This document shows positions 38,774 to 55,180 of a stretch of 64,000 nucleotides of DNA, one piece after another. The stretch lies in assembly GCA_964572455.1 (NCBI GenBank), contig CAZNFL010000002.1, forward strand, positions 1,423-65,422, read 5' to 3'. Numbering within the stretch: position 1 is the first letter of the stretch; the number at the start of each line of letters is the position of its first letter. The notes under the pieces were generated by a model. The model saw only the letters and a list, made by a program, of their open reading frames with translations, did not search any database and was not told where the DNA came from. This DNA comes from an uncultured Anaerolineaceae bacterium. Lineage in GTDB: Bacteria; Chloroflexota; Anaerolineae; Anaerolineales; UBA11579. The translations under genes were made by a program, and so were the position numbers.

Positions 38774-38774
38774 T

Positions 38775-39536
38775 ATGGCGCGCACTCCGTTGGTTGCAGG
38801 CAATTGGAAAATGAACAAGACGGCCTCTCAGGCCTTGCGCCTGGTGGAGGAATTATTGCCCGGCATGCAAGCCGTCTCCGGGGTTGAGATCTTGCTCTGT
38901 CCGCCCGCCACCTCGCTGATGGCGCTCTCCGCCGTGTTGGATATGACCGGCATCGCCCTCGGCGCGCAAAACCTGTACTGGGAGAACGAAGGCGCCTTCA
39001 CTGGGGAACTCTCGCCGGCGATGGTGGCCGAGTTTTGCCAGTATGTCATCATCGGCCATTCAGAGCGCCGCACCCTGTTCCACGAAAGTGACCAGGATGT
39101 GCAGCGCAAAGTGCAGGCCGCCCTGGCCGCTGGGCTGCGCCCGGTGCTGTGCCTCGGCGAGACGCTGCAGCAGAATGAAGCCGGCCGCGCCGCCGAGGTT
39201 GTCTCCGCCCAGCTTCGCGCCGCGTTACAGGGCGCAAATATCAATTCGCCTGAGAGTCTCGTGATCGCCTACGAACCCGTGTGGGCCATCGGCACCGGCA
39301 AGGCCGCCACGCCGCAGCCCACCGATACTCTGTTGCGCAATGTGGTGCGCCCGACCCTGGCCGGCCTGCTCGGCGAGCACATGGCCCAGGCGGTGCGCGT
39401 GCTGTATGGCGGTTCAGTGACCGCTGCCAACGCCGCCGACTTCTTTGCCATGCCGGAGATCGACGGCGCCCTGGTGGGCGGCGCCAGCCTGAAAGCCAAC
39501 GAATTCTTAGGAATTATTCGCTCAGCCGCGAACTAA
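38775..39536 (+). CDS. tpiA: Triosephosphate isomerase
   Basis: AGNWKMN, GHSERR, AYEPVWAIGTG, LYGGSV, LVGGASL. Confidence 0.98.
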   Translation: MARTPLVAGNWKMNKTASQALRLVEELLPGMQAVSGVEILLCPPATSLMALSAVLDMTGIALGAQNLYWENEGAFTGELSPAMVAEFCQYVIIGHSERRTLFHESDQDVQRKVQAALAAGLRPVLCLGETLQQNEAGRAAEVVSAQLRAALQGANINSPESLVIAYEPVWAIGTGKAATPQPTDTLLRNVVRPTLAGLLGEHMAQAVRVLYGGSVTAANAADFFAMPEIDGALVGGASLKANEFLGIIRSAAN

Positions 39537-39557
39537 GCGGGGCGTATTGTTTGGGTC

Positions 39558-40184
39558 TTAGCCAGTGCCAAACTGGCGGTCGCCAGCGTCGCCCAGACCG
39601 GGCACGATATAGCCGATCTCGTTCAGATGGCTGTCAATCGCCCCAAGGTAGATTGGCACATCCGGATGGGTCTTGCTCAGCAGTTCAATTCCTTCCGGGG
39701 CGCCAATGATCCCAACATATCTAATGTTCTTCACGCCCCACTCCTTGAGCAGACTCACCGTCGCCGTGGCCGAACCCCCGGTGGCCAGCATGGGATCCAG
39801 CACCAGGCAGGCGCCTACCGTCGGCAGGGTGGGCAACTTGTTGTAATACTGCACGGGCTGCAGCGTCTTTTCATCCCGGTATAAGCCGATATGCCACACC
39901 TGCGCATCCGGCAGCAGGTCCCAAACTCCATCCACCATCCCCAGCCCGGCCCGCAGGATGGGCACCAGGCCAATGTTGTCTTTCGTGGCGCTGCCCTTCG
40001 CCTTTCCCATCGGTGTTTCGACCTCTCTGGCTTCCATCGCCAGGTCGGCGGTGGCTTCATAAGTCAGTAACGCGCTGATCTCGCGCACCAGTTCGCGGAA
40101 TTTGCGCGGCTCGGTGTTCTTATCGCGCAGAATGGTCAGCTTATGCAGCACCAGCGGGTGGTTGGACGCATGGACGTTGGACAT
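39558..40184 (-). CDS. upp: Uracil phosphoribosyltransferase
   Basis: [36 protein letters not shown]; GAGGA RBS before ATG 40184. Confidence 0.96.
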
Positions 40185-40280
40185 AGGTTCCTCGGCTTTG
40201 GGCATTATAGTTCATGCCCAGCCATGGATTTGTTTCGAGTGGCTAAGCGAGCGTTTGTGCTCGCCATGTATAATCGTTCA

Positions 40281-41309
40281 ATGAGCAGTTCTCAGCCGCG
40301 TCTCATCGATCCACTGCGCCGCACTGACGACAAGATCGATCCCTCGCTGCGCCCGCGCACCCTGGACGAACTCATCGGCCAGGATAACGTTCGGGAAAAC
40401 CTGGCCATCCTCATTGCTGCCGCGCGGCAGCGAGCCGAGTCGTTGGATCACGTTCTCTTCTACGGCCCCCCTGGCCTGGGCAAAACGACCCTGGCCCATA
40501 TTCTTGCCAACGAGATGGGTGTCAATATCAAAGTCACCTCAGGCCCGGCCATCGAACGCCAGGGCGACCTGGCGGCGATATTGAGCAACATGAATCAAGG
40601 CGATGTTTTGTTCTTGGATGAGATCCATCGCCTTGGCAAGGCCATCGAAGAAGTGCTTTATCCAGCCATGGAAGATTTTTCCCTCGACATCGTGATCGGC
40701 AAGGGCCCCGCCGCCCGCGCCATCCGCCTCAAATTGCCTCGCTTCACTGTGGTCGGCGCTACCACCCGGCTTGCCCTGTTAACCGCGCCGTTGCGCGCCC
40801 GGTTTGGCGCCACCTTCCGCCTGGACTATTACGACTCGGCCGCCATCCGCGCCATCCTGGAGCGCGCCGCCGGTCAGCTTGGCGTCGAGGCGGCCAACGG
40901 GGGCCTGGAGCTGATCGCCTTGCGCTCGCGTGGCACCCCGCGAGTGGCCTTGCGTTTGCTGCGCCGCGTGCGCGATTTTGCCCAAGTGCGCGCCCAGGGG
41001 GTGGTTACAGATCAGGTGGCGCGCGACGCCCTGGACCTGCTGGAGGTGGATGAGCTGGGCCTGGACGAACTCGACCGGCGCGTGCTGCGCACCATAATCG
41101 ATAAATATGGCTGCGGGCCGGTCGGCCTCAATACCATCGCCGCTTCGGTGAGCGAAGAGGCCGACACCATCATGGATGTCGTCGAACCCTATCTGATGCA
41201 ATTGGGTTTTCTGGAACGCCGCTCCCAGGGCCGCCTGGCCACCGCCCAGGCCTGCGCCCATTTGGGCCTGCCATATACCGGCCAGCCCAATACCCCCACC
41301 TTGTTCTAA
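40281..41309 (+). CDS. ruvB: Holliday junction branch-migration helicase RuvB
   Basis: [33 protein letters not shown]. Confidence 0.96.
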
Positions 41310-41310
41310 C

Positions 41311-41533
41311 ATGCCCGACCTGGGCCGTATTCTCGTCATTCTTGGGATCGTGCTGCTGGTGGTTGGCGACCTGTTCATTCTGCTGCCTCGGCTTGGGCTG
41401 CCTCTCGGCCGTTTGCCCGGCGACCTGCGCTTGAAACTAGTCGGTTCACCTGTCTTATCCCGATTGCACCAGTGTGGTTTTGTCCATCTTGTTGACGATC
41501 GGTTTGAACTTGCTGGCTCGTTTCTTTAAATAA
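41311..41533 (+). pseudogene. DUF2905 (YrzS-like) small membrane protein with two apparent 1-nt deletions
   Basis: LGRLPGD motif, located between ruvB and queA. Restoring two bases gives ...R(F)ETSRFTCLIPI(A)TSVVLSILLTIGLNLLARFFK*. May be sequencing error. Confidence 0.7.
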
Positions 41534-41548
41534 CTGCATCTTCTGGAT

Positions 41549-42568
41549 TTGAAAACTTCTGATTTCGATTACAGCCTTCCGCCCGGGCAGATCGCCCAGG
41601 TGCCGCTGGAACAGCGCGATGCTTCCCGCCTGCTGGTTTTAGATCGCGCCAAACGTTCGCAAACCCATACCACCTTCCGCAAGCTTGTAGATTTCCTCAA
41701 CCCCGGTGACCTGCTGGTGCTCAATCGCAGCCGGGTCATCCTGGCTCGCCTGCTGGCACGCAAAATGTCGGGTGGTGGCAGGGTCGAATTGCTTTTACTG
41801 GAAAAACTAAATGACCGCAGTTGGAAGGTTCTGGTCGGCGGCAAAGGCCTAAACGTCGGCAAACAGCTTGAATTGCAAAACGGCATGGCCGCCACCATTA
41901 AGCAGGACCTGGGTGGCGCCCAGCGCCTGCTTGCTTTCGATCAGCCTATTGAATCCGAATTAGGTCGCCTAGGCGCGGTCCCGCTGCCACCCTATATTCA
42001 CGCCCAGTTAGCTGACCCGGAGCGCTACCAAACCGTCTACGCCCATGAGCCGGGGTCGGCAGCCGCGCCGACGGCGGGGCTGCATTTCACCCCGCAATTG
42101 ATGGATAAGATCAAAGCCAGGGGAGCTAATTTCGCTGAACTAACCCTGCACATCGGCCTGGATACCTTTGCCCCAGTTAACGAGGAAGACCCGCTCCAGC
42201 ATCAAATTCATACAGAATGGTGCCGGCTAACCGAGCAAACGGCCCGGCTGGTGAATGAAACCCGCGCTACTGGCGGCCGCGTGATCGCGGTGGGCACTAC
42301 CTCCCTGCGCGTCTTGGAAAGCGCCGCGGCCCTTTCCTCCTCTCGGGGCGTTGCACCCTTTGAGGGTCGCACGGATCTATTCATTCTTCCGGGTTATAAA
42401 TTCCATATTGTCGATGCCATGCTTACGAATTTCCACTTACCCCGCTCGACATTATTAATGCTGGTCAGCGCTTTTGCGGGCCGCGACCTTATCCTCGAAA
42501 CGTACCGCGCAGCGATCTCCGCAGGCTACCGGTTTTACTCTTTCGGGGATGCAATGTTTATCGTTTAA
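41549..42568 (+). CDS. queA: S-adenosylmethionine:tRNA ribosyltransferase-isomerase
   Basis: DFDY.LP, PLPPYI, YQTVYA, AAPTAGLHF, TNFHLPRSTL, YRFYSFGD. Confidence 0.96.
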   Translation: MKTSDFDYSLPPGQIAQVPLEQRDASRLLVLDRAKRSQTHTTFRKLVDFLNPGDLLVLNRSRVILARLLARKMSGGGRVELLLLEKLNDRSWKVLVGGKGLNVGKQLELQNGMAATIKQDLGGAQRLLAFDQPIESELGRLGAVPLPPYIHAQLADPERYQTVYAHEPGSAAAPTAGLHFTPQLMDKIKARGANFAELTLHIGLDTFAPVNEEDPLQHQIHTEWCRLTEQTARLVNETRATGGRVIAVGTTSLRVLESAAALSSSRGVAPFEGRTDLFILPGYKFHIVDAMLTNFHLPRSTLLMLVSAFAGRDLILETYRAAISAGYRFYSFGDAMFIV

Positions 42569-45500
42569 ACCGGGGTTAGCACGGTCTCGTCCAAGGCTTT
42601 GATAAAGGCCTGGACCACTTCGGGATCAAATTGGCTGCCGCTGCAGTGCTTAAGTTCCTGGAGGGCTTCCTCGTGGCTGCGCGCTTTACGGTACACGCGC
42701 TCATCCGTCATTGCCACATACGCATCTGCTACGCTGATGATGCGCGCCACCTTAGGGATGGCAGTGTCGCGCAGGCCGTCCGGATAGCCCAGGCCGTCAT
42801 ACCGTTCCTGGTGGGCACGGATGATGGGGGCCACGCTGGAAAGCGACTTTACTCTTTCTACAATGCGCGCCCCGATCTCCGGATGTTGGTGCATGATCTT
42901 TTCTTCATCCGCTTCCAAAACCCCGGGCTTTCTCAGAATATCGTCTGGCACGCCGATCTTGCCGATGTCGTGCAGCAAGGCTCCCCAACGAATGTTGATT
43001 AATTCGCCCTCGGTGCATCCCATCAATTCGCCGGTCTTCACCGCCAGGTCAGCCAACCGCTGGCTGTGGCCGCTGGTATAGGTGTCGCGCACATCGATGG
43101 CGCTTGCCAGGGCCCCGACGGTTTGTACGTAGGCTTCCTGCGCCTCATCGAACAACCGCGCATTCTCCAGGGCAATGCCTGCATGGTTGGCGAACGTGGA
43201 TACCAGCTGTGCGTCGGCTTGGCTGAACTGCTTCGTGCGGAAGCCGTCCACCGTAAGCACACCGATGGATTCGCCGCGTACGATCAAGGGAGCGCCGATC
43301 CAGGATTTGATCATTGCCGACGTGGGGCTTTTTACCCAATCGGGGTGCTTGGTAATATCCTCATAGATCATCGTACGATGCTCAAACAGTAGCGGATGAG
43401 CCAGCTTGTCTGTCTCGATGGGGATTTCGAAGCCGATAATGTTGTTGAGCAGGGACCCGGCATAAGCGCGCACACTCAGGTTCTCGCCTTTGATAATCTG
43501 GATCGAGGCGCTGTCGAAGGGTACCACCCGCTTCAACTGCTCCAGGATCAAATTGAGCACATTGGAGCTGTCGGTGGCGCTTCCCAAAATGGCGGCCACC
43601 TCTCGCAGCGTCTCGGCTTGCTCGCGTTGGACGCGCTCGGCAACGAACAGCCTCAGTTTGTCAATAGCCGTGCCCAGTTGGCCGCCGATCGTGTTCAGCA
43701 GCTGCAGGTCTTTGTCCGAGAAGGCATTCACTTCCGCACTTTCCGCATTGATCACACCCAAGACCCGGTTGTTGTTGGCCAGGATGGGGACGCATAGTTC
43801 CGAGCGCATGTTGGGGCTGACGTTGAGATAGTATGGTTCCTGGCGCACGTCTGCCACCCGCCAGGGTTTCCCCGTGACGGCTACCTTGCCGGTGATCCCC
43901 TCCGAAAGCGGCACTTGCCTCTCTTTGGTCTCCTCGCTAATGCCGCGGTAGCTGCGGTTGACCATTAAAACTGCGGAATCTGCGTCCAGCATCAGGAAAC
44001 CGAATTGGTCCGGATATAAACTGTCGCCGATGATCTCAGTAGCCCGTTCCAGCAGCTCGTCCTCGCTTTTGGCGTTGACCGCCGCGTGCGTGATGGCGTG
44101 CAGCAGGGTCAGTTCCTGCAGTTGCCTGCGTGTCGAATCGAACAGATTGATGCCTTCCAGGGCGATCGAGATCTGGTCGCACAGGGTGCTTAGGGCTTCC
44201 ACTTCATATTCATCGAATGCATTTAATTCGTTGCTCTCGATATTGAGCAACGCAACTACGCGCTTGTAGATCTTGATCGGAATGATCAATTCGGAATTGA
44301 TCATTTCGTGGCCGGGCACCTGCTTATACTCGGAGCGCTCGTGAACGTTGTTGGCCACCACCACCTTGCCGCTGCGGGCGGCCACATCCAGCAACCCGTC
44401 GCCAAACTGCTGGCGATACCCGCTCTCGGCAACCAATGGTTCGAAAGTGCCGCTCACGGCCGAGAGCACGTATTCCCGGCTTCCCTCGTCAACCACCGAA
44501 ATGTCTGTCGAGACGTAGTTCATGTCCTTGTTTAGGCGTTCCACGACGATCTTGAATAATTTCTCCTGGTCCAAAACCCCGCTCATTTCGCCGGTCAGCT
44601 TGTTCAAAATGCCAAGCTGCTTGGTGCGCTGCCGTTCGGAGGCGGCGTTGCGTAGCCGCTCAATGCCGCTGGCCAGCTGCCCGGAGAGGGTAAGCAAAAG
44701 CTGCTCATCCGTTTCGCTGAAGTGATCTAGCTCACTGCTTTCGGCGTTGATCACGCCGATCACTCGGTCTCCGATCGTCATTGGTACGCATAATTCGGAT
44801 TGGGTGTCCTCATTGCAACCAAGGTAATTTTTTACCCGGTGTGTATTGGCCACTCGCATGGTCAGGCCCTTGGCAGCCACCTGGCCGGTGATGCCTTTGC
44901 CCAGGGGAATGCTGAGAACGTTAAGCGCGTTTCCGGTTTCGTACGACGGATGCACCTTGAGTTGGTTGTCTACCCTATCCAGCATAAGCACACCCAAATC
45001 CTCTGGATAGAGATTTTCTCGAATTAAAAGGGTCGCCCGCTCGATAAGTTCGTCTTCACTGGTCGCTTCGGTGGCGATTGCGGACACCTGATATAAGATG
45101 CTCAGTTCTTGCACTTGCCGGCGGGTGGCTCCAAATAAGCGTGCATTTTCGATCGCCACGGCCACTTGGTGGCATAGTGTCTGGGCCAAATAGATCTCGC
45201 GGTCGCTGAAGGTGCGCGGTCCCCGCGTTTCTTGCAATTCCACCAAGCCCATGGTCTTGTTCTGGGCAACCAGTGGTAAAAGCAGCAGCGTGGATATCTT
45301 CGCTTTTTTGAACGCGGCCTTTTCTTTAACCGTCAGGCCGGGGTCATCGGTGTGCTTTTGGATGGGCAGGTTCTTTTCCACTACCTGGGTAAGGGATAGC
45401 TGCTCGGCTAATGAAACCATTTTATATGTTTGCGGTAAATGGGTCACCCTGGGGTTGGCAAACATCGTGTGAGCCTTGATCCCCGGGTTGGGCCGCCAAT

Positions 45501-45732
45501 CGGCCAGGATACAAATAGGCACGTCCAGCAGGTTGGTCAACTGCTGCGCGATGAGCTGCAGCACTTTGTCCACATCCAGGCTTGAGACAATACTGGCGCC
45601 GGCGATAGCCAAGGCAGCCAGATCCTCGGTATTGTCACGCTCAGCCCCGGGGTTTGCCTGGTACCTGGAATCGGTCATCGAACGGCTATTGCTCCGTAAT
45701 GTTTTTTCCTGGTCATGCGATTTAAGCAGCAT
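42565..45732 (-). CDS. Five-GAF HD-GYP cyclic-dinucleotide phosphodiesterase
   Basis: Five GAF repeats ending in A.A(I/L)E/D.A/LRL-type helices; GHS.R, LHDIGK, HQERYDG.GYP, VADAYVAM. Start position uncertain. Confidence 0.9.
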   Translation of the reverse strand: MLLKSHDQEKTLRSNSRSMTDSRYQANPGAERDNTEDLAALAIAGASIVSSLDVDKVLQLIAQQLTNLLDVPICILADWRPNPGIKAHTMFANPRVTHLPQTYKMVSLAEQLSLTQVVEKNLPIQKHTDDPGLTVKEKAAFKKAKISTLLLLPLVAQNKTMGLVELQETRGPRTFSDREIYLAQTLCHQVAVAIENARLFGATRRQVQELSILYQVSAIATEATSEDELIERATLLIRENLYPEDLGVLMLDRVDNQLKVHPSYETGNALNVLSIPLGKGITGQVAAKGLTMRVANTHRVKNYLGCNEDTQSELCVPMTIGDRVIGVINAESSELDHFSETDEQLLLTLSGQLASGIERLRNAASERQRTKQLGILNKLTGEMSGVLDQEKLFKIVVERLNKDMNYVSTDISVVDEGSREYVLSAVSGTFEPLVAESGYRQQFGDGLLDVAARSGKVVVANNVHERSEYKQVPGHEMINSELIIPIKIYKRVVALLNIESNELNAFDEYEVEALSTLCDQISIALEGINLFDSTRRQLQELTLLHAITHAAVNAKSEDELLERATEIIGDSLYPDQFGFLMLDADSAVLMVNRSYRGISEETKERQVPLSEGITGKVAVTGKPWRVADVRQEPYYLNVSPNMRSELCVPILANNNRVLGVINAESAEVNAFSDKDLQLLNTIGGQLGTAIDKLRLFVAERVQREQAETLREVAAILGSATDSSNVLNLILEQLKRVVPFDSASIQIIKGENLSVRAYAGSLLNNIIGFEIPIETDKLAHPLLFEHRTMIYEDITKHPDWVKSPTSAMIKSWIGAPLIVRGESIGVLTVDGFRTKQFSQADAQLVSTFANHAGIALENARLFDEAQEAYVQTVGALASAIDVRDTYTSGHSQRLADLAVKTGELMGCTEGELINIRWGALLHDIGKIGVPDDILRKPGVLEADEEKIMHQHPEIGARIVERVKSLSSVAPIIRAHQERYDGLGYPDGLRDTAIPKVARIISVADAYVAMTDERVYRKARSHEEALQELKHCSGSQFDPEVVQAFIKALDETVLTPV

Positions 45733-45898
45733 AGCTTACCTTAGTCATCCTCACAGCTTACGATCCGCTTTTCCGGGGAAGCACCCCGGCTCCACTTTAA
45801 GAACACTAGTGTGAGTCATCTTCACCCACACCCCTGGTCTTAATCTTGACCCTGAGGGTCTTATTTTTGTGTTTTCAGTGACAAGCCGCTGTCACGGG

Positions 45899-46114
45899 TT
45901 ACGCAACTGCTGTGCCGGGTTGGATGAGCCCGCTCAGGTGGCGAATGAACTGGTCCAGATCCATAGCCTGGATGGACATCACTGCCTGGGCTTCTTCGTC
46001 ATTCAACTGGAAGGCGCCGAGGCGCTCCTGCAGCTGGCCATTCAACACCGCCGTCTTGAACTCGTTGTCCAGCAAAGCTTGTGTAGCGATTGCATTCAGT
46101 TTTAGTTTAGACAT
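45899..46114 (-). CDS. 71-aa helical protein, NHLP/Nif11-clan-like (copy 3)
   Basis: AAGGAGA RBS; MSKLKLNAIATQALLDNEFKTAVLNG...FQLNDEEAQAVMSI; protein identical to copy 2. The track's 113-aa version uses an unlikely upstream start. Confidence 0.8.
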   Translation of the reverse strand: MSKLKLNAIATQALLDNEFKTAVLNGQLQERLGAFQLNDEEAQAVMSIQAMDLDQFIRHLSGLIQPGTAVA

Positions 46115-46148
46115 TGCAAATCTCCTTATTTTTTTAGTCGTGCAGACC

Positions 46149-46313
46149 TTAGTGGTCGGTGCCGATGCCGCCGCCCATGGGGCCTTCAAATTGAACACCA
46201 GTGCCAATGCCGCCGCCCATGGGGCCTTCAAATTGAACACCAGTGCCGATGCCGCCGCCCATAGGGCCTTCGAATTGAACGCCGGTTCCGCTTGTCATCT
46301 GTGTTTTAGACAT
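46149..46313 (-). CDS. 54-aa Gly-rich peptide with three tandem 14-aa cores
   Basis: AGGAGA RBS; MSKTQMTS-(GTGVQFEGPMGGGI)x3-GTDH*; the repeats differ only at synonymous sites. Confidence 0.8.
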   Translation of the reverse strand: MSKTQMTSGTGVQFEGPMGGGIGTGVQFEGPMGGGIGTGVQFEGPMGGGIGTDH

Positions 46314-46349
46314 TTTCGAGTCTCCTATCGTAGTTTGGTTGAAGAATGG

Positions 46350-46565
46350 TTACGCAACTGCTGTGCCGGGTTGGATCAGTCCGCTCAGGTGGCGAATGAA
46401 CTGGTCCAGATCCATAGCCTGGATGGACATCACTGCCTGGGCTTCTTCGTCATTCAACTGGAAGGCGCCGAGGCGCTCCTGCAGCTGGCCATTCAACACC
46501 GCCGTCTTGAACTCGTTGTCCAGCAAAGCTTGTGTAGCGATTGCATTCAGTTTTAGTTTAGACAT
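46350..46565 (-). CDS. 71-aa helical protein, NHLP/Nif11-clan-like (copy 2)
   Basis: AAGGAGA RBS; A..D..F...L pattern and L..EE motif. Confidence 0.82.
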   Translation of the reverse strand: MSKLKLNAIATQALLDNEFKTAVLNGQLQERLGAFQLNDEEAQAVMSIQAMDLDQFIRHLSGLIQPGTAVA

Positions 46566-46599
46566 TGCAAATCTCCTTATTTTTTTAGTCGTGCAGACC

Positions 46600-46680
46600 T
46601 TAGTGGTCGGTGCCGATGCCGCCGCCCATGGGGCCTTCGAATTGAACGCCGGTTCCGCCTGTCATCTGTGTTTTAGACAT
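46600..46680 (-). CDS. 26-aa Gly-rich peptide with one 14-aa core
   Basis: AGGAGA RBS; MSKTQMTG-GTGVQFEGPMGGGI-GTDH*. Confidence 0.78.
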   Translation of the reverse strand: MSKTQMTGGTGVQFEGPMGGGIGTDH

Positions 46681-46716
46681 TTTCGATTCTCCTAGCGTAG
46701 TTTGGTTGAAAAATGT

Positions 46717-46932
46717 TTAGGCAACTGTAGTGCCGGGTTGGATCAGTCCGCTCAGGTGGCGAATGAACTGGTCCAGATCCATAGCCTGGATGGACATCAC
46801 TGCCTGGGCTTCTTCGTCATTCAGCTGGAAGGCGCCGAGGCGATCTTGCAGCTGGCCATTCAACACCGCCGTCTTGAACTCGTTGTCCAGTAAAGCTTGT
46901 GTGGCAATCGCATTCAGTTTTAGTTTAGACAT
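46717..46932 (-). CDS. 71-aa helical protein, NHLP/Nif11-clan-like (copy 1)
   Basis: AAGGAGA RBS; differs from copies 2 and 3 by E>D and A>T plus synonymous changes. Confidence 0.82.
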   Translation of the reverse strand: MSKLKLNAIATQALLDNEFKTAVLNGQLQDRLGAFQLNDEEAQAVMSIQAMDLDQFIRHLSGLIQPGTTVA

Positions 46933-46971
46933 CTCAATCTCCTTGTTTTTGCATAGGTGTTATTAGTCGTG

Positions 46972-47043
46972 CTAGCGCACAACAGTTGATGGTTGGTACC
47001 AAAGTACCGCCCATGGCGTTACAACATCTGTTTTTTTAGACGT
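46972..47043 (-). pseudogene. Degenerate copy of the peptide gene
   Basis: AGGAGG then ACG-TCT-AAA (intact copies have ATG-TCT-AAA), ..CAGATG.., and ATGGGCGGTACTTTGGTACCAACCAT aligning with MGGGIGTDH codons after a 1-nt gap. Confidence 0.6.
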
Positions 47044-47133
47044 TTCAACCTCCTAAAAGCATAGGTTTGCAGGTGGGCATCCTATCCGAGGCCCTATGAA
47101 CGCAGATATGAGCAAGGTCTGTGCCAGGGGACC

Positions 47134-47164
47134 AAAAAGGCCACCCCCAACCCTTGGTAGCCTT
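47134..47164 (-). terminator. Putative intrinsic terminator after the STAND regulator
   Basis: Minus strand aaggctacc-aagggttggg-ggtggcctt-ttt. Confidence 0.5.
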
Positions 47165-47211
47165 GCTGGCGGCGTTGCTTTTGGAACATTGTCGTCTACA
47201 TGGTGGCCTCC

Positions 47212-50200
47212 TTAAGCCTTTACCGCCAATTGGTCGTAATACGCCTGAAGTTCCGGCAATGGCTCTGCATTTAATTCCCTGCGCAGCATGGTGCGGTAAT
47301 CTTTGAAATGGGCGATCGCTGCTGATGGTGCGCCCGAAAGCGCCAGGCATTTCATCATCGCCAGGTGCACTTCGTCGCGATACGGGTCGACCGCCAACAC
47401 CCTCTCGTAATTATGCTTTGCTGAGCGGTAGTGCTTGTTGCTGGTTTCCATGGCGGCCATGTCGATAAGGGCTTCAAGATAAAGGTTGCGCAATTCTTCT
47501 CGGCGCAGGTCTGCCCATTCCATATAGATATCCTGCAAGAAGGGCGCCTGGTACAGGTCGATAGACTGTTTGATCAGTTCGTTGCGCTCCCGCTTCGAAA
47601 GGCTTTGTGCTTCTGCCCGGCTCAAGTTGTTTTCAAATTCTGCTACGTCATACCAGAGCTGGATGGACGGGTGCAAGCTATATTGTTCGTTCTCAAAGAT
47701 GATCGCCTCTTTGAATCCCAGCGCCTGCCGCACCCGCCACAGCGTGGCGTGGAAATTGCTGCTGATCTTGCCTGAACTGAAATCCGGCCAGAAATCCAAT
47801 CCGATGGCTTCCTTGCGAACCTTCCCGTGGTCCAAAATATAGAAGAATAGCGCCCGGGCGCGGCTGGAGCGCCACGTGCTGGGATGTACCAGTTCCCCAT
47901 CGCGGCGAATCTCTCCGGTCCCAAAAGCATGTATCTCCATATGGATGGGAGTTAACTCGGGGTCGGGGGCTTTGCGCTCGAGTGCTACCTTGCCAGTAAT
48001 GAAATTTGCCGCCCGTTCAAACAAGGCTTGTATTTGTTCTGATGACCTTGTTTTTGAAAAATAAGTCAAAAAATCAGGCAAAGACCGGGCAGCATTAACT
48101 AAAAATTGATCGTAGCCTAACTGAGCCGAACCCTTTAATGCCTTATTTAGCAGCTTTTCTGCTTTTTCATATTCCCCATTTTGAAATAAGGTTCGTCCAG
48201 CTAGGAAGGCTGCTAGGACTTGGGGTTGCTTTGGCGCTTTTCGTTCAGGCCAATTGGCTATGGCTTGTTCAAATTGCTCCATAGCCAGATCCATCTGCCC
48301 CATTTCCCCATAGATCGCCCCGAGTTCCGTAGCATAGTCGACTTTGTCCAAACCACCCCCCTTGAAATTAGCGGCCAACCTCAACCAATTCATGGCCTCG
48401 CTGTAGTGGCCCTTCTTGCGCTCGGCCCGCGCTAAGCCGGTATAGGTGTCGATCGACTCGGGTTGTTCTCCAGCTTGTTGCTTCAAAGCAAACGCTTGTT
48501 GAAAGTTCTTATGTGCTTCCTCGGTCTCATCGACTTCTAACAACATTTCCCCACATCCGTTCAATATTGAGATTTGTGCGCGCACATGGTTTGCCGCTTT
48601 CGCGTGGGCCATCCCCAGCGAATACTCACGCCATGCTTCGATGTATTGCCCAATTTGATGGTGCAGATAAGCAATATTGTTGTGTGCGGAGGAAAGTGCA
48701 CCTAAATTGCTGTGAATATTTGTATGTATATCCAGGGCTTCTTGGAAAGCCTTTTGTGCGCCAAGTATTTTCCCAATAGAGATTTGAACGAATCCGAAAT
48801 CGGTGAGGCATTCTGCTAGGTCGTATAGGTAACGGATTTTTTCTGAGGATTCGTTGAGCTCGGTTAACTCCCGTAACCCCGAGGAAGCTGACTCCAGGCA
48901 TTTTATAGCCTTCTGCGATTCACCTAAATAATAGAGCGGTAATGCCTTCAAGCGTTCTGCCTGAAACCACTTCTGACGGCTCTCGGGTTTGCGCTTGCCG
49001 TGCAATAGGTCCTGAGCTTTTTCCGCTAGCTCGAGCCCCTCATGGTACTTCCCGGTAAATCGATAGATCATGCCGCGGGTGATGATGGCGTTCGCTAATG
49101 CGTCCACATCCTTTAATTTCGACAGGATGGGTTCGGCCGTTTGCAGGAGTTTCAGCGCCGGTTGGAACTGGCTCTGGTTGCCGAGGATCTTGGCCTGGTA
49201 AAGCATCAGGTGCGGCGCTTTCTTTCTTAGGTTCGGCGGGCTGCCCAGGCGCTCCATCCAGCGCGCGATCAGCATTTGCCGCCCGGATGTGTAGAACTGA
49301 ACAGCGACTGCATCCATCCAGTTGGCCGCTTCCTGTTTATCGCCGGCCTCCAGTTTGTGGTCGATGGCGCGTTCCCACTGCTGCCGTTCCCGGTACCACT
49401 CCGCCGCTCGCCGGTGCAGGTCCCGCACCCGCGGCTTTTGGTTGCGCACAAAATAATCCTCAAGGAATTCCGCGAATAACTGGTGGTAGCGGTAGCTGGG
49501 TCCTTCGCTGGTCTCCGTGCGGCTCACGAACAAGTTACGCTCTTCGAGTGCGCGCAGGTAGTCGGCGGAATCCTTGCGCTCCAGCAGGAAATTGCACAGC
49601 GGCTCATTGAAATCTTCTAATATGGATGTGGCCAGCATGAAGTCGCGCAGTTCTTCACTTTGGCGGCTGACCACTTCCTCGGCCAGGTAAGCGTAAATAT
49701 GTTCGATGCCTCCGCTAAGGTCTGGCAGTACGCCGTTCTCCATTGTGCGCAAGGCCAGCAGGATGGCAATGATCCAGCCATCTGCCCGCGTGGCAAACTC
49801 TTGGGCCTGCTCATTGCTCAGGCGCACCCTGTGGTTCTGCAGCACCAGCCTTTGCAGCTCGTCCGCCCTAAAGCGCAGTTCGTCCGCGCTGATAGTTACT
49901 AGCTCGTCGCGAATATAAAGGTTGGCCGTTGGGATTCCATATACGCTGCGCGAACCGATCAGGATACGCAATCGGTCGGGCAGGTTTTCCAGCAGGTTTT
50001 CGATGAAGTCAACGATCTGCTGGTTTTCCCCCGCCAGGTGGTAATCGTCCAGCACCAGCAGTGAAAAGTCCTCTACTTTTTCTTCTATTTCATTGATAAG
50101 GTCAACCGCCAGGGTGGCCGCGTCTGGGCTGCCCCCGGGTGAATCCAACTTCTCGGCTAGCTCCAGGCCAAATTGCGGGATTTGCTGTTGGAAAGAGGCT

Positions 50201-50442
50201 ACCAGGTGCTGGACGAACAAAACCAGGTCTGCGTCATCCGGGCTGATGCGGTACCAAAACACCGCGGCATCTACATCCGCGGCAAAATCCACCAGCAAGG
50301 TGGTCTTGCCGTAGCCGGCCGGCGCCGACACAAAGGTCAGCTTGCGGTGCAGGTTTTGATGCAGGATGTCGATCAACCGCACCCGGCGCAGCACATCTTT
50401 GCGCCGCTGTGGCGCACGCACTTTGGTGAGTAGGATAGTCAT
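47212..50442 (-). CDS. MalT-like STAND NTPase-TPR-wHTH/BTAD transcriptional regulator
   Basis: LLTK..P, APAGYGKTTL, LVLDDYH, YRYHQLFAEFL; central TPR helices; C-terminal FG..EI..DG, WPD, NFHATLWRVR, YDVAEFE, DPYRDE, EPLPE. Confidence 0.9.
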   Translation of the reverse strand: MTILLTKVRAPQRRKDVLRRVRLIDILHQNLHRKLTFVSAPAGYGKTTLLVDFAADVDAAVFWYRISPDDADLVLFVQHLVASFQQQIPQFGLELAEKLDSPGGSPDAATLAVDLINEIEEKVEDFSLLVLDDYHLAGENQQIVDFIENLLENLPDRLRILIGSRSVYGIPTANLYIRDELVTISADELRFRADELQRLVLQNHRVRLSNEQAQEFATRADGWIIAILLALRTMENGVLPDLSGGIEHIYAYLAEEVVSRQSEELRDFMLATSILEDFNEPLCNFLLERKDSADYLRALEERNLFVSRTETSEGPSYRYHQLFAEFLEDYFVRNQKPRVRDLHRRAAEWYRERQQWERAIDHKLEAGDKQEAANWMDAVAVQFYTSGRQMLIARWMERLGSPPNLRKKAPHLMLYQAKILGNQSQFQPALKLLQTAEPILSKLKDVDALANAIITRGMIYRFTGKYHEGLELAEKAQDLLHGKRKPESRQKWFQAERLKALPLYYLGESQKAIKCLESASSGLRELTELNESSEKIRYLYDLAECLTDFGFVQISIGKILGAQKAFQEALDIHTNIHSNLGALSSAHNNIAYLHHQIGQYIEAWREYSLGMAHAKAANHVRAQISILNGCGEMLLEVDETEEAHKNFQQAFALKQQAGEQPESIDTYTGLARAERKKGHYSEAMNWLRLAANFKGGGLDKVDYATELGAIYGEMGQMDLAMEQFEQAIANWPERKAPKQPQVLAAFLAGRTLFQNGEYEKAEKLLNKALKGSAQLGYDQFLVNAARSLPDFLTYFSKTRSSEQIQALFERAANFITGKVALERKAPDPELTPIHMEIHAFGTGEIRRDGELVHPSTWRSSRARALFFYILDHGKVRKEAIGLDFWPDFSSGKISSNFHATLWRVRQALGFKEAIIFENEQYSLHPSIQLWYDVAEFENNLSRAEAQSLSKRERNELIKQSIDLYQAPFLQDIYMEWADLRREELRNLYLEALIDMAAMETSNKHYRSAKHNYERVLAVDPYRDEVHLAMMKCLALSGAPSAAIAHFKDYRTMLRRELNAEPLPELQAYYDQLAVKA

Positions 50443-50485
50443 CGCTTCCCGGGACGCTATTTCATCTCTTCTTCCTTGAAAAGTG

Positions 50486-50515
50486 AGTCTATTGCGCTTG
50501 GCTAAGCTTTGTCAA
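50486..50515 (-). promoter_or_regulatory. Sigma70-type promoter for the STAND regulator
   Basis: TTGACA-18 nt-TAGACT on the minus strand. Confidence 0.55.
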
Positions 50516-50581
50516 GCCCGCTTGGAAACCGCGCCCTCAGTTGTATGACAACCTGAGCCTATATTATAATTTTAGTCTTCA

Positions 50582-51886
50582 ATGCGCGCTGTAGACATTA
50601 TTATCAAAAAACGGGACCGGAAAGAGCTAACCGCCGCCGAGATTCGCTTCTTTATTAAGGGATTTACCCATGGCACGGTGACGGATTACCAGGCTTCCGC
50701 TTGGGCTATGGCCGTCCTCCTCAATGGCATGACCGACCGGGAGACCACCGAGCTTACCCTGGCCATGGCCGCATCGGGCGAACAGCTGGACCTGAGCGAA
50801 GTCGTGGGCTTAGCCCTCGATAAGCATTCCACCGGCGGGGTGGGGGACAAAACCACGCTGGTGGTCGAACCCGTGGTGGCCTCTTGTGGCCTGCGAGTCG
50901 GCAAAATGTCAGGCCGTGGCCTGGGCTACAGCGGGGGCACCCTCGACAAAATGGAATCTATCCCCGGCTTTCGCACCGATCTAACCAAAGAAGAGTTCCT
51001 CCGCCAATTGAAAGAAGTCGGCTTAGTCCTCACCGGCCAAACTGGCGATTTGGCTCCTGCCGATGGCAAGCTCTATGCCCTGCGCGATGTGACCGGCACC
51101 GTGGATGCTCGTGCCCTGATCGCCTCGTCCGTGATGAGCAAGAAATTGGCCGCCGGCGCCCAACGCATCGTGCTGGATGTCAAAGTGGGCACAGGCGCCT
51201 TTATGAAAACCCAGGCGGATGCGCGCGCCCTTGCTAAGCTTATGGTGAAGATCGCCAGGCTGGCCGGCCGCAAGGCGGTGGCCCTCATTTCGGACATGAA
51301 CCAGCCCCTCGGCCACGCGGTCGGCAACGCCCTGGAAGTAAAAGAAGCCATTGAGACCTTGCGTGGGGGCGGGCCACCCGATTTTCGCCTGCACGCCATT
51401 GAAGTAGCCGGCCACCTGCTTGTGCTCGGCGAAGCCGAAAAGACGTTAGCTGCCGCCCGCAAACGCGCCGCCGCTGCTTTGGATGATGGCCGCGCCTTCG
51501 ATCGCTTTCGGGTCTTGGTCGAGGCACAAGGCGGGGATGTCAGTTACGTGGACGACCCTGGCCGCCTGCCGAGCGCTCAGCTTATTGAAGACGTTCCGGC
51601 GCCGCGCTCGGGTTACCTCAGGTGGGTGGATGCCAGGGAGATCGGCGGGGCCTCCGTAGATCTGGGCGCCGGCCGCGCCAAGAAAGGCGATTCCATCGAT
51701 CATTCCGTTGGCATCGTCGTGCACCATAAAGTTGGGGATCGAGTGGGGAAGGGCGAACCGCTATTTACTGTTCATGCCAACGATCAGGCCAAACTCGAAG
51801 CTGCCCGCGCCCGCGTGCTTGCCGCCCACCAATGGAGCCCCAAAAAGGTCAAACCGCTTCCCCTTTTCTACGGCACCGTGAAATAG
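50582..51886 (+). CDS. pdp: Pyrimidine-nucleoside/thymidine phosphorylase
   Basis: DKHSTGGVGDK, KMSGRGLG, ALRDVTGT, SVMSKK, DMNQPLG. Confidence 0.94.
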   Translation: MRAVDIIIKKRDRKELTAAEIRFFIKGFTHGTVTDYQASAWAMAVLLNGMTDRETTELTLAMAASGEQLDLSEVVGLALDKHSTGGVGDKTTLVVEPVVASCGLRVGKMSGRGLGYSGGTLDKMESIPGFRTDLTKEEFLRQLKEVGLVLTGQTGDLAPADGKLYALRDVTGTVDARALIASSVMSKKLAAGAQRIVLDVKVGTGAFMKTQADARALAKLMVKIARLAGRKAVALISDMNQPLGHAVGNALEVKEAIETLRGGGPPDFRLHAIEVAGHLLVLGEAEKTLAAARKRAAAALDDGRAFDRFRVLVEAQGGDVSYVDDPGRLPSAQLIEDVPAPRSGYLRWVDAREIGGASVDLGAGRAKKGDSIDHSVGIVVHHKVGDRVGKGEPLFTVHANDQAKLEAARARVLAAHQWSPKKVKPLPLFYGTVK

Positions 51887-51896
51887 CATCCACATT

Positions 51897-52076
51897 TGTC
51901 ATTTCAAGCGGCTCTGTTTTCTTGTCATTTGAGGCGGCTCCGCTTGGTTTCCATTCAGGAAGACTCCTCCATTTGTCATTCCGAGCGGCATACCGAAGTC
52001 CGTACCAGATGGAGATTCAATAAAGCGAGAAATCCGTATAACCTCATATTCCAAATAACCATCGTTCTGCTTGTCG
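51897..52076. repeat. Cluster of TGTCATT-type REP-like repeats including a 103-bp unit (51974-52076)
   Basis: Three tgtcatt..gcggc starts; the 103-bp unit aligns without gaps to 54759-54861 with about 15 mismatches by hand count. Confidence 0.75.
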
Positions 52077-52160
52077 CGCCGCAAACGCCTCCTGTTCCCC
52101 GTAACCTCATATTGCAAGACAACCAATTTTGTGCCACTCAAGTCTGCCTTACAACAAAAC

Positions 52161-52192
52161 AAAAAAGCCCTGCCGAACCTGGCAGGGCTTTT
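52161..52192. terminator. Bidirectional intrinsic terminator between pdp and degV
   Basis: aaaaaagccctgcc-gaacct-ggcagggctttt. Confidence 0.85.
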
Positions 52193-52205
52193 ATATCTTA
52201 TGCTT

Positions 52206-53060
52206 TTACTTATATCCCGCCATAAACGCGAATCCCAACGTGCCGGGGCCTGTGTGTGTGCCCACCGCCGGGCTCACATCCGTAAGGGCGGACTCCTCTG
52301 GCTTGACCCTCTTGCTGGCCTCGGCCAGCAAAGCTTTGGCATCCTCGCGTGCATTGGCGTGCAGCACCGCCAGGTGCAATGGCTTACGCCCGCCCACCCG
52401 GTCCACCAGCAACTCCACCAGGCGCTCCAGCGCCTTGCTCTTGGTGCGCACTCGTTCTGTAGCTTCTAGGGCGCCGTCTTGGATCTCGAGGATGGGTTTC
52501 AGGTTGAGCGCCGTGCCCATAAAGCGCGCCCCGCCGCCGATCCGGCCACCGCGATGCAGGAACTCCAGGGTGTCTACCAGCAGCAAAACACCGGCGTTCT
52601 CCCGGGCGCTTTCGAGGATCTTTACGCAATCCTGGGCGGATTTGCCAGCCTTAACAGCCTTGGCGGCTTCCAGCAGCGGCCAGCCGGTACCCATGGAAGC
52701 CGAGCGGCCGTCCACAATGTGAATATTCACGCCGGAAACCATTCCCTTGGCCTGTTCGGCGGAGGTCAGCGTGCCAGAAAATTTGGAGGAAACAAAGCTG
52801 CACACAATGTCGGTGAAACCTTTAGAGCCCAGCTCCTCGAATTTCTCTTTGAACGCAGCTGGGGTAGGCTGCGAGGTCGTGGGGGTCTCTTTTGAGCTTG
52901 CCAGCCGTTTGTAAAACTCATCGGGCTGGATATCCACCCCATCTTGCAGCGTCTCTCCCCCCCAAATGATCACCGCGGGGACCACGTGAATATCGTGACC
53001 TTTGCTTAACTCTTTGGGGATATTGGTAGTGCTGTCAGTGACTAGCGCTATCTTTGCCAT
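52206..53060 (-). CDS. DegV family fatty-acid-binding protein
   Basis: VTDST, TTSQP, SSKFSGT, L.RGGRIG, KPIL, GTHTGPG. Confidence 0.93.
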   Translation of the reverse strand: MAKIALVTDSTTNIPKELSKGHDIHVVPAVIIWGGETLQDGVDIQPDEFYKRLASSKETPTTSQPTPAAFKEKFEELGSKGFTDIVCSFVSSKFSGTLTSAEQAKGMVSGVNIHIVDGRSASMGTGWPLLEAAKAVKAGKSAQDCVKILESARENAGVLLLVDTLEFLHRGGRIGGGARFMGTALNLKPILEIQDGALEATERVRTKSKALERLVELLVDRVGGRKPLHLAVLHANAREDAKALLAEASKRVKPEESALTDVSPAVGTHTGPGTLGFAFMAGYK

Positions 53061-53145
53061 TTACTCTCTCCTAGGGGTAAGCGAACTATCTACTAATTAG
53101 AACACAGGTTTGAGGGCGAGTCGCGCCCTTTCCCAAGGCTTACCC

Positions 53146-53174
53146 TTGACCGCCATGCTGTTGCAAGCTAGAAT
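53146..53174 (+). promoter_or_regulatory. Sigma70-type promoter of the rpsP operon
   Basis: TTGACC-17 nt-TAGAAT; a second TATAAT at 53210-53215. Confidence 0.6.
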
Positions 53175-53247
53175 GGCAGGCTGTGCGCAGGGATGCTCGG
53201 CGCAACAGGTATAATCCAGGACATCAGAATTCAGGAGTTTTTCGATC

Positions 53248-53835
53248 ATGGTTCGTATTCGATTGCGCCGCGTAGGCGGAAAAAAACAGGCCAGTTTTCG
53301 AGTTGTGGCCGCGGATAAGGAAAGCCCCCGCAACGGGCGCTTTATTGAGATTCTCGGCTTTTATAACCCTCGCACCGAACCGGCTACCATCAACTTAAAG
53401 GAAGATCGCATCTATCAGTGGATCAGCAACGGTGCCCAGCCCAGCGATTCCGCCATGCAAGTGTTCAAGGTGGCCGGCCTGCTGGACCGCTTTGAGCGCT
53501 TCAAATCCGGCGAGAAGGTCGAAACCTTGCTGGCCGAGGCCGAAACGGCTTCAAAGACCCGCAATGCTAATTTCCAGACGGAGCACGCCGCCCCCGCTGC
53601 CGGTACATCTATAAGGAAGAAGGCCTCCAAGGCTGAGAAGGCGGCTAAAGAGCCTGCCAAATCGCCAGAAGTTGCCGCCCAGCCGGCTGCTGCGGCTGAA
53701 CCTGAGGCCCCTGTGGCTGAGCCTGAAGCCCTTGCGGCTGAAGCTGCCGCTCAACCCGAAACACCCGCGGCCGAACCTGCTGCCGCTGCGGAACCCGAAG
53801 CTCCCAAAGCTGAAGAGACGCCTCCCGCCGAATAA
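53248..53835 (+). CDS. rpsP: 30S ribosomal protein S16 with long Ala/Glu/Pro-rich C-terminal tail
   Basis: MVRIRLRRVG, SPRNGRFIEILG.YNP, GAQPSD; AGGAG RBS. Confidence 0.96.
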   Translation: MVRIRLRRVGGKKQASFRVVAADKESPRNGRFIEILGFYNPRTEPATINLKEDRIYQWISNGAQPSDSAMQVFKVAGLLDRFERFKSGEKVETLLAEAETASKTRNANFQTEHAAPAAGTSIRKKASKAEKAAKEPAKSPEVAAQPAAAAEPEAPVAEPEALAAEAAAQPETPAAEPAAAAEPEAPKAEETPPAE

Positions 53836-53843
53836 GTTCTTCA

Positions 53844-54080
53844 ATGAAAGAATTGATCGAGTACGTGGCGCGCTCCCTGGTGGATGATCCCACCCAGGTG
53901 CGCGTTTCCGAGCGCCAAAAGGGCGAAAGCACCGAGATCTCTCTCGAGGTAGCCAAGCCGGATATGGGTCGTGTCATCGGCCGCTCTGGCCGCGTGGCGA
54001 ACGCCATCCGCATTCTCCTGCAGGTGGCAGCCACCCGCGACGGAAAGCGCGCCTTCCTGAATATCTCGGAACCTGATTGA
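53844..54080 (+). CDS. khpA: KH domain RNA-binding protein
   Basis: LVDDP, DMGRVIGRSGRVANAIR; lies between rpsP and rimM. Confidence 0.92.
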   Translation: MKELIEYVARSLVDDPTQVRVSERQKGESTEISLEVAKPDMGRVIGRSGRVANAIRILLQVAATRDGKRAFLNISEPD

Positions 54081-54670: not shown

Positions 54671-54681
54671 AATCCCTTGCG

Positions 54682-54995
54682 CGTCATTCTAGGTCGACGC
54701 CCCCTCTATTGTGTCATTCTGAGGCGAACTTTTTCTCTCGCGTGCCATTTCTCCACCTTGTCATTCCGAGCGGCCTACCGAAATCTTTACCAGTCGGAGA
54801 ATCAAGAAAGCGAGAAATCCCTACAACCTGATATTCCAAATAACCAATGTTCTGCCTCTCGAGGGCGATGAATGCCGAATACGCAGCCGACGTTATTTGG
54901 AAACCAAGCCCCGCCGCTTGCGGCGGGGTGCGTTACTCCGAGGCGACTCTTTATCTTCCGTGTCATTCTGAGGCGAGCTCCGCGAGCCGAAGAAT
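54682..54995. repeat. REP-like repeat cluster with an IS200/IS605-end-like hairpin
   Basis: gtcatt units near 54683, 54712, 54759 and 54961; ccccgccgc-tt-gcggcgggg hairpin at 54909-54928. Confidence 0.7.
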
Positions 54996-55156: not shown

Positions 55157-55180
55157 CTGCCACCTTGAGGGGGGCCCATA

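Follow-up and report, generated by a model that had tools for sequence, protein, structure and literature searches.

A tandem-repeat micropeptide family beside a SARP-bearing STAND regulator in an Anaerolineales genus, and its likeness to AfsR/AfsS

The AfsR/AfsS pair of Streptomyces consists of a large regulator and a small repeat protein. AfsS is described as small, lacking a DNA-binding domain, carrying two to five short repeats and having low identity between species (PMC10832544). According to the same source, afsS is a direct target of AfsR and the AfsS repeats bind AfsR with a dissociation constant (Kd) of 4.7 uM, strengthening its DNA binding, a mechanism that was explained only in 2023 (PMC10832544). 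The afs box, which spans -40 to -19 of the afsS promoter, is reported to be a pair of 11-bp direct repeats, and in each of them it is the first 8 bp that one SARP protomer contacts (PMC10936776). The present analysis concerns a family of glycine-rich repeat peptides, encoded beside a large STAND regulator in DNA of an uncultured Anaerolineaceae bacterium (Chloroflexota; Anaerolineae; Anaerolineales; UBA11579). The window, which is the whole stretch of 64,000 nucleotides that was analysed, comprises positions 1,423 to 65,422 of the forward strand of contig CAZNFL010000002.1 (assembly GCA_964572455.1), and coordinates given below are those of the window unless another locus is named. The Anaerolineales are abundant, mostly uncultured, filamentous bacteria, and we know of hardly any regulatory circuits described from them.

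As in AfsR, the regulator of this locus has a SARP module, a STAND NTPase and TPR repeats. It adjoins a gene for a small repeat protein (one to five units here; about 60 aa and two to five repeats in AfsS, which is compared by its description), with no match to a DNA-binding domain. Likewise, the -35 of the promoter is poor and a pair of direct repeats immediately precedes the -10, a likeness that is seen in the sequence only. Unlike AfsR/AfsS of Streptomyces, the locus is in the Chloroflexota and has two further conserved partners, a 71-aa NHLP-like protein and an HD-GYP protein. In addition, the window peptides have no visible likeness to described families, and their relatives in other genera carry a signal-like segment. 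The peptide is probably a partner or a signal of the adjoining regulator. By analogy, it may be an AfsS-like multivalent ligand or co-factor of this regulator, which is put forward as a tentative reading whose chances fall somewhat short of even.

Two intact open reading frames (ORFs) encoding the peptides are real, unannotated genes:

46149 to 46313, minus strand: three-unit peptide gene, 54 aa, translated as MSKTQMTS, three copies of GTGVQFEGPMGGGI and GTDH
46600 to 46680, minus strand: one-unit peptide gene, 26 aa, translated as MSKTQMTG, one copy of GTGVQFEGPMGGGI and GTDH

Both have an ATG start 7–8 nt after TAGGAGA, a GGAG ribosome site. There are six variable nucleotide sites among the four 42-bp units (GGA/GGC, ACC/ACT, GGC/GGT, TTC/TTT, CCT/CCC and ATC/ATT), and all six are synonymous. 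The synonymous share of the possible single changes in one unit is 32 out of 126 (25%), so that under a naive model the chance of all six changes being silent is 0.25^6, or about 2e-4. The 8-aa N-termini of the two peptides are a single non-silent base apart (AGC Ser / GGC Gly), and the eight residues before the first unit are polar, with no hydrophobic stretch. Tandem Repeats Finder reports the 42-bp array at 46159–46280 (2.9 copies, 95% matches) and a 367-bp higher-order repeat at 46243–46950. The source is a metagenome-assembled genome (MAG) of 2.5 Mb in 81 contigs, and with repeats that are 94–100% identical in such an assembly the unit and cassette copy numbers may be affected; independent metagenome proteins include close relatives with two units.

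The original prediction had described both ORFs with exactly these sequences, leaving the strand unnamed, and its observations that the 42-bp units differ only at silent positions and that there is an 8-aa leader, no hydrophobic signal peptide and no Cys are true of both window peptides; relatives do contain Cys. Its argument that selection acts on this reading frame, with the repeated core as the functional unit, is strongly supported by the unit comparisons and by in-frame homologues. The frame is preserved in relatives, which favours that argument, and across the family the repeat number varies in frame from one to five units. The paired 71-aa gene, a decayed third peptide copy, the promoter and the wider module described below lay beyond its view.

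A multi-unit in-frame ORF is found directly upstream of the 71-aa gene in 21 of the 22 genomes of the genus, with four units in 20 of these and five units in one. The remaining genome has a frameshifted peptide copy at a contig end. If genome G016, which is flagged as unpublished, is set aside, the 71-aa gene is present in 21/21 and the multi-unit ORF in 20/21; nothing stated here depends on G016 by itself. The GGAG-type ribosome site ahead of the ATG is present in 14 out of 14 aligned genus loci. Two-unit forms of the peptide are also found (P0006, P0079, P0083 and P0084, with two units and a partial one in P0007). Alignment of 20 peptides gives a unit of three free residues followed by [Y/Q/H/R/G]-P-x-G-G-G-[I/V]-G-[T/G/S/H], usually then G, D or S and P. 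The unit is 14 aa long, with a core of P-x-GGG-[IV]-G-[TG] and three linker residues, and is preceded in these peptides by 4–10 residues. In many species residues able to bind metal (C, M, H, D, Y) are found at positions -3 to +1, counted from the Pro.

The units of single genes were compared codon by codon in 18 genes. At the eight core positions from the Pro to +7, the summed within-gene differences are 400 synonymous and 6 non-synonymous, as against 70 synonymous and 183 non-synonymous at linker positions -4 to -2. Position +1, directly after the Pro, is M, I, C, T, L, R or V according to the species. Within the 18 genes it nevertheless shows 46 synonymous and no non-synonymous differences, the residue being kept by differing codons such as CTC/CTC/TTG/TTG. 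The synonymous divergence between units is too large for recent duplication or gene conversion alone to be sufficient. Together with the identity of the core, this divergence indicates that selection keeps all of the units of one gene alike in their core.

Relatives are scarce among predicted proteins, since gene callers almost never call the peptide gene. Only two were found among 5.8 billion clustered proteins. The peptide profile gave 44 matches at E values up to 0.001 among 1.84 billion representatives, and seven of the ten top sequences examined from these 44 are true relatives. The long matches of the profile (P0068, P0072, P0074 and P0081) were rejected as unrelated repeat proteins. In the window, long plus-strand antisense ORFs cover the cassette array (45869–46966), for example 45912–46556 (214 aa) and 46339–46695 (118 aa). 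Such ORFs arise as by-products of the repeat and because the antisense frame of the 71-aa gene is open, as it is in relatives; they could hide the small genes from automatic annotation and are probably the reason for the absence of the peptide genes from the list of ORFs.

Each peptide gene is followed after about 35 nt by a gene for a 71-aa protein that has its own strong ribosome site. The peptide and 71-aa pair is present three times, the peptide slot of the first pair being decayed:

46972 to 47043, minus strand: decayed first peptide slot, from translation and DNA alignment to the one-unit gene
46717 to 46932, minus strand: 71-aa protein, copy 1, differing from the other copies by E30D and A69T
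46350 to 46565, minus strand: 71-aa protein, copy 2
45899 to 46114, minus strand: 71-aa protein, copy 3, identical to copy 2

Duplication takes in both members of the pair as one unit. The decayed slot has kept its ribosome site (47044–47055), and has ACG for ATG, a 23-nt deletion and a frameshift. A promoter-proximal peptide copy that is frameshifted or decayed, with its 71-aa gene intact, was seen in genomes G000, G010 and G001, which are the three genomes seen with more than one cassette or with a contig end. These copies lie at 46972–47043 of the window, at 660–863 of locus L013 and at 5780–5920 of locus L061.

The 71-aa family is present in all 22 genus genomes and, across the class, in 60 of the 301 genomes sampled (40 of 176 genera). 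An AlphaFold2 model of the protein has five short helices, with a mean confidence (pLDDT) of 81. Several comparisons point towards the NHLP clan. The NCBIfam model NF038399 (Os1348 family NHLP clan) is matched by 18 out of 20 family members at E values up to 1, the best being 3.3e-6, with all matches below the curated cut-off (16 bits for the window protein against a cut-off of 40). The sole PDB sequence match of the family profile is Os1348 (6lk7_A; E 0.049), and the language-model neighbours of the protein include, as a lead only, a cluster named for the Os1348 family (score 0.84). Os1348 itself is described as a Pseudomonas protein of 85 aa that resembles a precursor and belongs to a putative bacteriocin cluster (PMC7726476). 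Structure searches with the model added nothing to this: Foldseek gave no match in the PDB at E values up to 0.001, and the best match of the wide VIA fold search had a Z of 4.8, which is noise for helical proteins, with Os1348 at Z 3.7 and SonA at Z 4.6. The sequence matches suggest that the 71-aa protein is related to the NHLP clan, and distantly only. The protein contains neither a core peptide nor a Gly-Gly cleavage site, and its C-terminal tail is short and variable. Among proteins of 147–2000 aa there was none in which the peptide and the 71-aa protein are fused, which is weak evidence. Joint folding of the peptide alignment with the 71-aa alignment gave a score of 0.00 against a mark of 0.32, and is informative in neither direction.

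Upstream of the first cassette is a promoter region with a conserved architecture:

47132 to 47164, minus strand: terminator-like hairpin and T run, after the STAND gene
47094 to 47113, minus strand: direct-repeat box, GCTCATAT-ctgc-GTTCATAG, a candidate SARP-domain binding box
47079 to 47084, minus strand: -10-like hexamer TAGGAT, 9 nt after the second repeat

The GC-rich stem and T run after the STAND gene are in the same place in all 15 aligned genus sequences, and are not listed by a simple consensus scan. The promoter layout is of two 8-bp direct repeats with a 12-bp period (GYTCATAG, 4 nt, GTTCATAG), followed after 9 nt (8 nt in one locus) by TAnnAT. Direct repeats with a TAnnAT -10 are found in 15/15 aligned genus sequences and in seven out of eight loci from other genera, the exception being L034, whose direct repeat is another one (TGTAAGTG twice). 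The cassette promoter lacks a canonical -35, and a sigma-70 scan found no promoters. The 5' end of the transcript is predicted near 47072. Counted back from the -10, the window repeats are at about -41 to -22, a placement like that of the afs box, on which basis the cassette is very probably a direct target of the adjoining regulator. The window box is the one exact match to the box pattern in the 2.5-Mb genome. When one mismatch is allowed there are five sites for the box pattern and also five for a control pattern, so the pattern is not enriched in the genome. A hydrophobic 'LLIAAFIG' upstream of the genus peptides was considered as a remnant signal peptide and rejected, since DNA alignment shows it to be the translated promoter box in a frame that is not conserved.

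A second full promoter architecture was seen outside the window, on contig C12 of genome G000 at about 38342–41590 (L067, L069). It consists of CTTTATAG-cttc-GTTCATAG, 9 nt and TATATT, and is about 65 nt upstream of the gene for a 615-aa protein (P0066) with a zinc-protease-like motif, HExxH...E-x-x-x-D, and no Pfam family. This is followed by an MBL-fold protein (P0067) that is weakly like defence-system MBL proteins. The P0066 gene is present in only four out of 61 related genomes, and as a conserved processing protease it was rejected on this count. One of the four, G010, keeps half of the box, and it alone among the other genomes was seen to carry a duplicated cassette.

The cassettes lie between two large genes on the same strand:

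47212 to 50442, minus strand: STAND transcription regulator, 1076 aa, from domain scans and PDB alignment
45808 to 45832, minus strand: terminator-like hairpin, found by the consensus scan alone, between the last 71-aa gene and the HD-GYP gene
42565 to 45732, minus strand: GAF/HD-GYP protein, 1055 aa, with five GAF domains and a C-terminal HD-GYP

The regulator has a MalT-like NTPase (about residues 5–480), a TPR sensor (about 480–830) and a SARP module of winged helix and BTAD (about 845–1076). Its Pfam matches are BTAD (932–1071), TPR_12, TPR_MalT and AAA_16, and NCBIfam identifies MalT at 6–479 (E 4e-76). In the PDB, MalT (8bob_C) aligns to residues 5–369, and residues 55–279 of AfsR (8hvr_I) align to 845–1069 (E 5e-6); the region 840–930 reads as a winged helix. 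No N-terminal extension precedes the NTPase, which begins at about residue 5 and has its Walker A motif at 43–47. Only generic and MalT-type TPR families are matched by the TPR part, which is the most variable region among 13 genus orthologues, with a mean pairwise identity of 0.50 compared to 0.76 for the NTPase and 0.66 for the SARP module. In the GAF/HD-GYP protein the HD motif is at 921 and the GYP motif at 982, Pfam GAF_2 matches in five stretches and HD_5 at 876–1039, and there is an NCBIfam match to a NosR-type phosphodiesterase (155 bits). From these motifs and matches it is a probable phosphodiesterase of cyclic di-GMP (c-di-GMP). The consensus terminator scan found two sites, no more than in shuffled sequences (mean 2.4).

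The order of the module, all on the minus strand, is STAND regulator, terminator, promoter, peptide and 71-aa cassettes, and HD-GYP protein. Of 35 related loci, 29 have a STAND homologue ahead of the 71-aa gene on its upstream side; it is elsewhere in L059, L062 and L063, and only a fragment at a contig end is present in L041 and L043. An HD_5 gene comes after the 71-aa gene in all 22 genus loci that have downstream DNA, and in six of the seven other-genus loci that keep the STAND, peptide and 71-aa order (11 scanned). The sensor parts of the other-genus HD_5 proteins vary, with none, GAF, receiver, or dCache and GAF. No protease, cyclase, other modifying enzyme, peptidase, transporter or exporter is conserved in the module in the 11 related loci scanned. 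Likewise, the 14 window proteins at 39558–56305 are the regulator, the GAF/HD-GYP protein and housekeeping proteins, with no modifying enzyme, peptidase or exporter among them. In L057 (6640–7660), the seventh of the order-keeping loci, a stand-alone receiver-domain gene and then an IS200-type transposase follow the 71-aa gene in place of the HD-GYP gene. In L034 (G048 contig C1, 1736000–1755999) the STAND homologue matches in three separate pieces and is probably broken; transposase genes are located downstream of the 71-aa gene.

Outside the genus, the slot upstream of the 71-aa gene is occupied by an ORF of 35–63 aa that has a basic N-region and about 20 hydrophobic residues. This signal-like, single-core form, with signal-peptide status judged by eye, was seen in eight out of eight other-genus loci of the family or order, and in 13 of 29 loci across the class. 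There is often an AxA-like site, and the chain ends at its C-terminus with the core (A-P-I-G-G-G-T-G-V or G-P-T-P-G-G-V-G-T, for instance). These homologues begin with residues like those of the genus peptides (e.g. M-x-K-x-K-V-Y). No multi-unit form was seen in the loci examined outside the genus. Since the single-core relatives bear the signal-like segment and the N-termini are alike, the genus form looks like a derived one in which the hydrophobic segment was lost and the core multiplied. The ancestral form was probably an exported ligand.

If the peptide is an AfsS-like ligand, the SARP domain of the regulator would bind the direct repeats and switch on the cassette. The leaderless peptide would stay inside the cell, where its identical cores would bind the regulator, most likely at the fast-evolving TPR sensor. 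Binding would favour oligomerisation or DNA binding of the regulator, generating a positive loop as with AfsS and AfsR. The presence of several identical cores in one chain could reflect the need of an oligomerising STAND protein for a multivalent ligand, and a joint diversification of peptide and sensor would be in keeping with core residues that are species-specific and a TPR region that evolves fast. The 71-aa protein and the HD-GYP enzyme may have co-evolved as partners, or may be outputs, connecting the loop to c-di-GMP.

There are several points that weigh against this AfsS-like reading. The domain order of the regulator is NTPase, TPR and SARP, which is the reverse of that in AfsR, and the period of the direct repeats is 12 bp rather than the 11 bp of the afs box. 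No family match for the peptides was found in Pfam, NCBIfam or PADLOC, the only rows in the family scans being at chance level (a PhrK model at E 2 and a holin model at E 0.027), which counts against the likeness to AfsS. The signal-like segment in other genera better fits an extracellular role, and an intracellular target would then require re-import. The best-conserved small gene of the module is the 71-aa gene, to whose product the model assigns no specific role. The variability of the TPR region is weak support, since TPR sensors vary in many STAND proteins. Related genomes and loci are not independent of one another, and the genus-wide counts therefore overstate the number of independent observations. 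The contacts between the peptide and the regulator, and those among other parts of the module, are ones that we infer by analogy. Lastly, the metagenome relative P0073 (91 aa) has four units with V, V, M and M at position +1. The linkers of P0073 also differ between units, and its called start is far upstream and may be wrong.

An exported role for the peptide is the first alternative to be weighed. The multi-unit chain would be a polyprotein-like precursor cut into identical 12–14-mers that serve as a quorum or pattern signal, leaving by a non-Sec route or passing between the cells of a filament, and being perceived either by the HD-GYP/GAF protein or, once taken up, by the TPR-STAND regulator. 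This would explain the signal-bearing single-core relatives better, and the same species-specific core in every unit of a gene is as expected for many copies of one product. RNPP-family TPR receptors are described as binding imported peptides as a rule (PMC3601965, PMC5131891), and PptAB is reported to be able to export leaderless peptides (PMC11323143). The window peptides, however, have no export signal, the linkers are variable with no conserved cleavage site apart from the core itself, there is no protease or transporter in the conserved module, the protease-like gene with a similar promoter box is restricted to the four genomes noted above, and the signal-peptide status of the relatives was judged by eye. 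An exported signal is possible, then, and on balance unlikely. The locus is like RNPP/RRNPP systems (Rap/Phr, NprR/NprX, Rgg/SHP) in having a cytoplasmic TPR-type receptor beside a very small peptide gene, species-specific peptide residues and, in the single-core relatives, a C-terminal core behind a hydrophobic segment. It is unlike them in that the putative receptor, of 1076 aa, is a STAND ATPase whose output is a SARP module and in that the window peptides are tandem multi-core chains rather than secreted propeptides. The known home of RNPP systems is the Firmicutes. The original prediction had suggested a repeated signalling peptide by analogy with multi-copy Phr propeptides. The likeness holds for several identical short units per product with a varying copy number, and is aided by the signal-like homologues and the TPR sensor of the neighbouring regulator; it fails for the window peptides in their want of a signal sequence, of conserved processing sites in the spacers and of a known processing enzyme. 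The multi-core precursor, cut or cyclised, that was offered beside it is possible, and would have to do without a protease, cyclase or modifying enzyme in the conserved module.

Alternatively, the pair could be a split form of a ribosomally synthesised and post-translationally modified peptide (RiPP), with the 71-aa NHLP-like protein as trans leader, recognition element or chaperone, and with the peptide modified by enzymes encoded elsewhere. The 18 of 20 sub-threshold NF038399 matches, the sole PDB match to Os1348 and the precursor-like nature of that protein in its putative bacteriocin cluster (PMC7726476) would fit this, as would the joint duplication of the two genes and a peptide that is almost all core, with 4–10 residues before its first unit. 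The 71-aa partner is small and helical like Os1348-family NHLP precursors (NF038399; 6lk7), with weak, repeated profile matches. In contrast to them it has no core or Gly-Gly site and its matches are below cut-off, and the repeat peptide is a separate gene with no NHLP or Nif11 leader fused to it. The genes nearby are regulators rather than biosynthetic genes, neither the module nor the 14 genes at 39558–56305 include a modifying enzyme, peptidase or exporter, the structural matches to Os1348 and SonA are at noise level, and no fused form was found, which is weak evidence. A split RiPP is accordingly quite unlikely. A free-standing structural or binding peptide, either a metal- or ligand-binding repeat or a partner of only the HD-GYP/GAF or the 71-aa protein, is distinctly improbable. 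Potential metal ligands are near the core in many species and the HD-GYP gene is the conserved downstream neighbour, yet in several species those positions are taken by N, Q, L, R or V alone, one- and two-unit forms exist, and the core has no tie to a known binding motif. The peptide gene always immediately precedes the 71-aa gene, from which a short spacer separates it, and this raises the possibility of a stalling leader peptide: ribosomes would stall on its Gly/Pro-rich units, which would set how the 71-aa gene, about 35 nt further on, is translated, and the free peptide would have no function. G-I-G-T-G-P presumably resembles the G-I-R-A-G-P end of the SecM arrest sequence. However, one species (L045, with GIGH-I) and every single-core homologue lack the G-P after the core, no gene has it in its last unit, the identity of the species-specific residue across units would be unexplained, and the 71-aa gene has a strong ribosome site of its own; stalling is very unlikely as the function. 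The amyloid motif of the original prediction, RHIM- or BASS-like and templating the adjoining STAND protein, can hardly be correct. There is a short glycine-rich peptide beside an NLR-like STAND protein in a filamentous lineage, and amyloid motifs are reported beside bacterial NLRs, the BASS layout being the same motif at the effector C-terminus and the NLR N-terminus (bioRxiv 10.1101/2020.01.06.895854). This layout is not seen here, as the STAND NTPase starts at about residue 5 with no extension for a matching motif, and the V-Q-F that suggested it is in the variable linker, where 18 of 20 aligned peptides do not keep it, relatives having PSF, PQA, PLF and others instead; there is no conserved core of the G-[VI]-Q-[VI]-G kind. 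There is also no Bell-type effector domain, the peptide being 26–54 aa in all.

The AfsS-like reading shares the logic of AfsR/AfsS, and what is new here is the permuted regulator, the unrelated peptide, the two extra conserved partners and the signal-bearing ancestral form. Literature searches, with most subscription journals outside their coverage, did not find the peptide or the module described, nor any SARP-STAND regulator with a peptide partner from the Chloroflexota. A wider circuit can be imagined, and is improbable when taken as a whole. In it, an NLR-like STAND ATPase with a SARP output would be the receptor of a glycine-rich ribosomal peptide that was ancestrally a Sec-exported single-core pheromone. 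In one filament-forming genus this would have become a leaderless tetravalent ligand, acting within the cell or between filament cells, wired to c-di-GMP through the HD-GYP protein and with the 71-aa NHLP-like protein as its trans partner. If this were true, the 71-aa protein and the peptide would show that a leader-like domain and its core can be parted in nature.

The family is a clear case of a conserved micropeptide missed by gene callers. It also provides a testable candidate ligand for a bacterial STAND/NLR-like transcription factor; to our knowledge, ligands have been assigned to few of these. The logic of AfsR/AfsS would be extended outside the Actinobacteria, and the signal-bearing single-core and leaderless multi-core forms would represent a natural experiment on a peptide signal becoming private.

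There is a weak hint that the cassette is expressed. In two sediment metatranscriptome runs, from two studies, short contigs that are 90–99% alike lie on both peptide genes and on the 71-aa genes; these contigs come from relatives, and DNA can be present in RNA libraries. One contig (46609–46786) has the whole one-unit gene and the 3' end of the preceding 71-aa gene, and another (46041–46194) has the junction of the three-unit gene and the following 71-aa gene. No RNA contig was found on 45700–45861 or 46996–47300, which, as the data are contigs, says nothing about transcript ends or flanking genes.

Beyond the module, on the other strand, are the housekeeping genes queA, ruvB, upp and that for pyrimidine-nucleoside phosphorylase. 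The gene for ribosomal protein S16 (53248–53835) encodes 195 aa, with the S16 domain at about 2–78 only and a long C-terminal extension.

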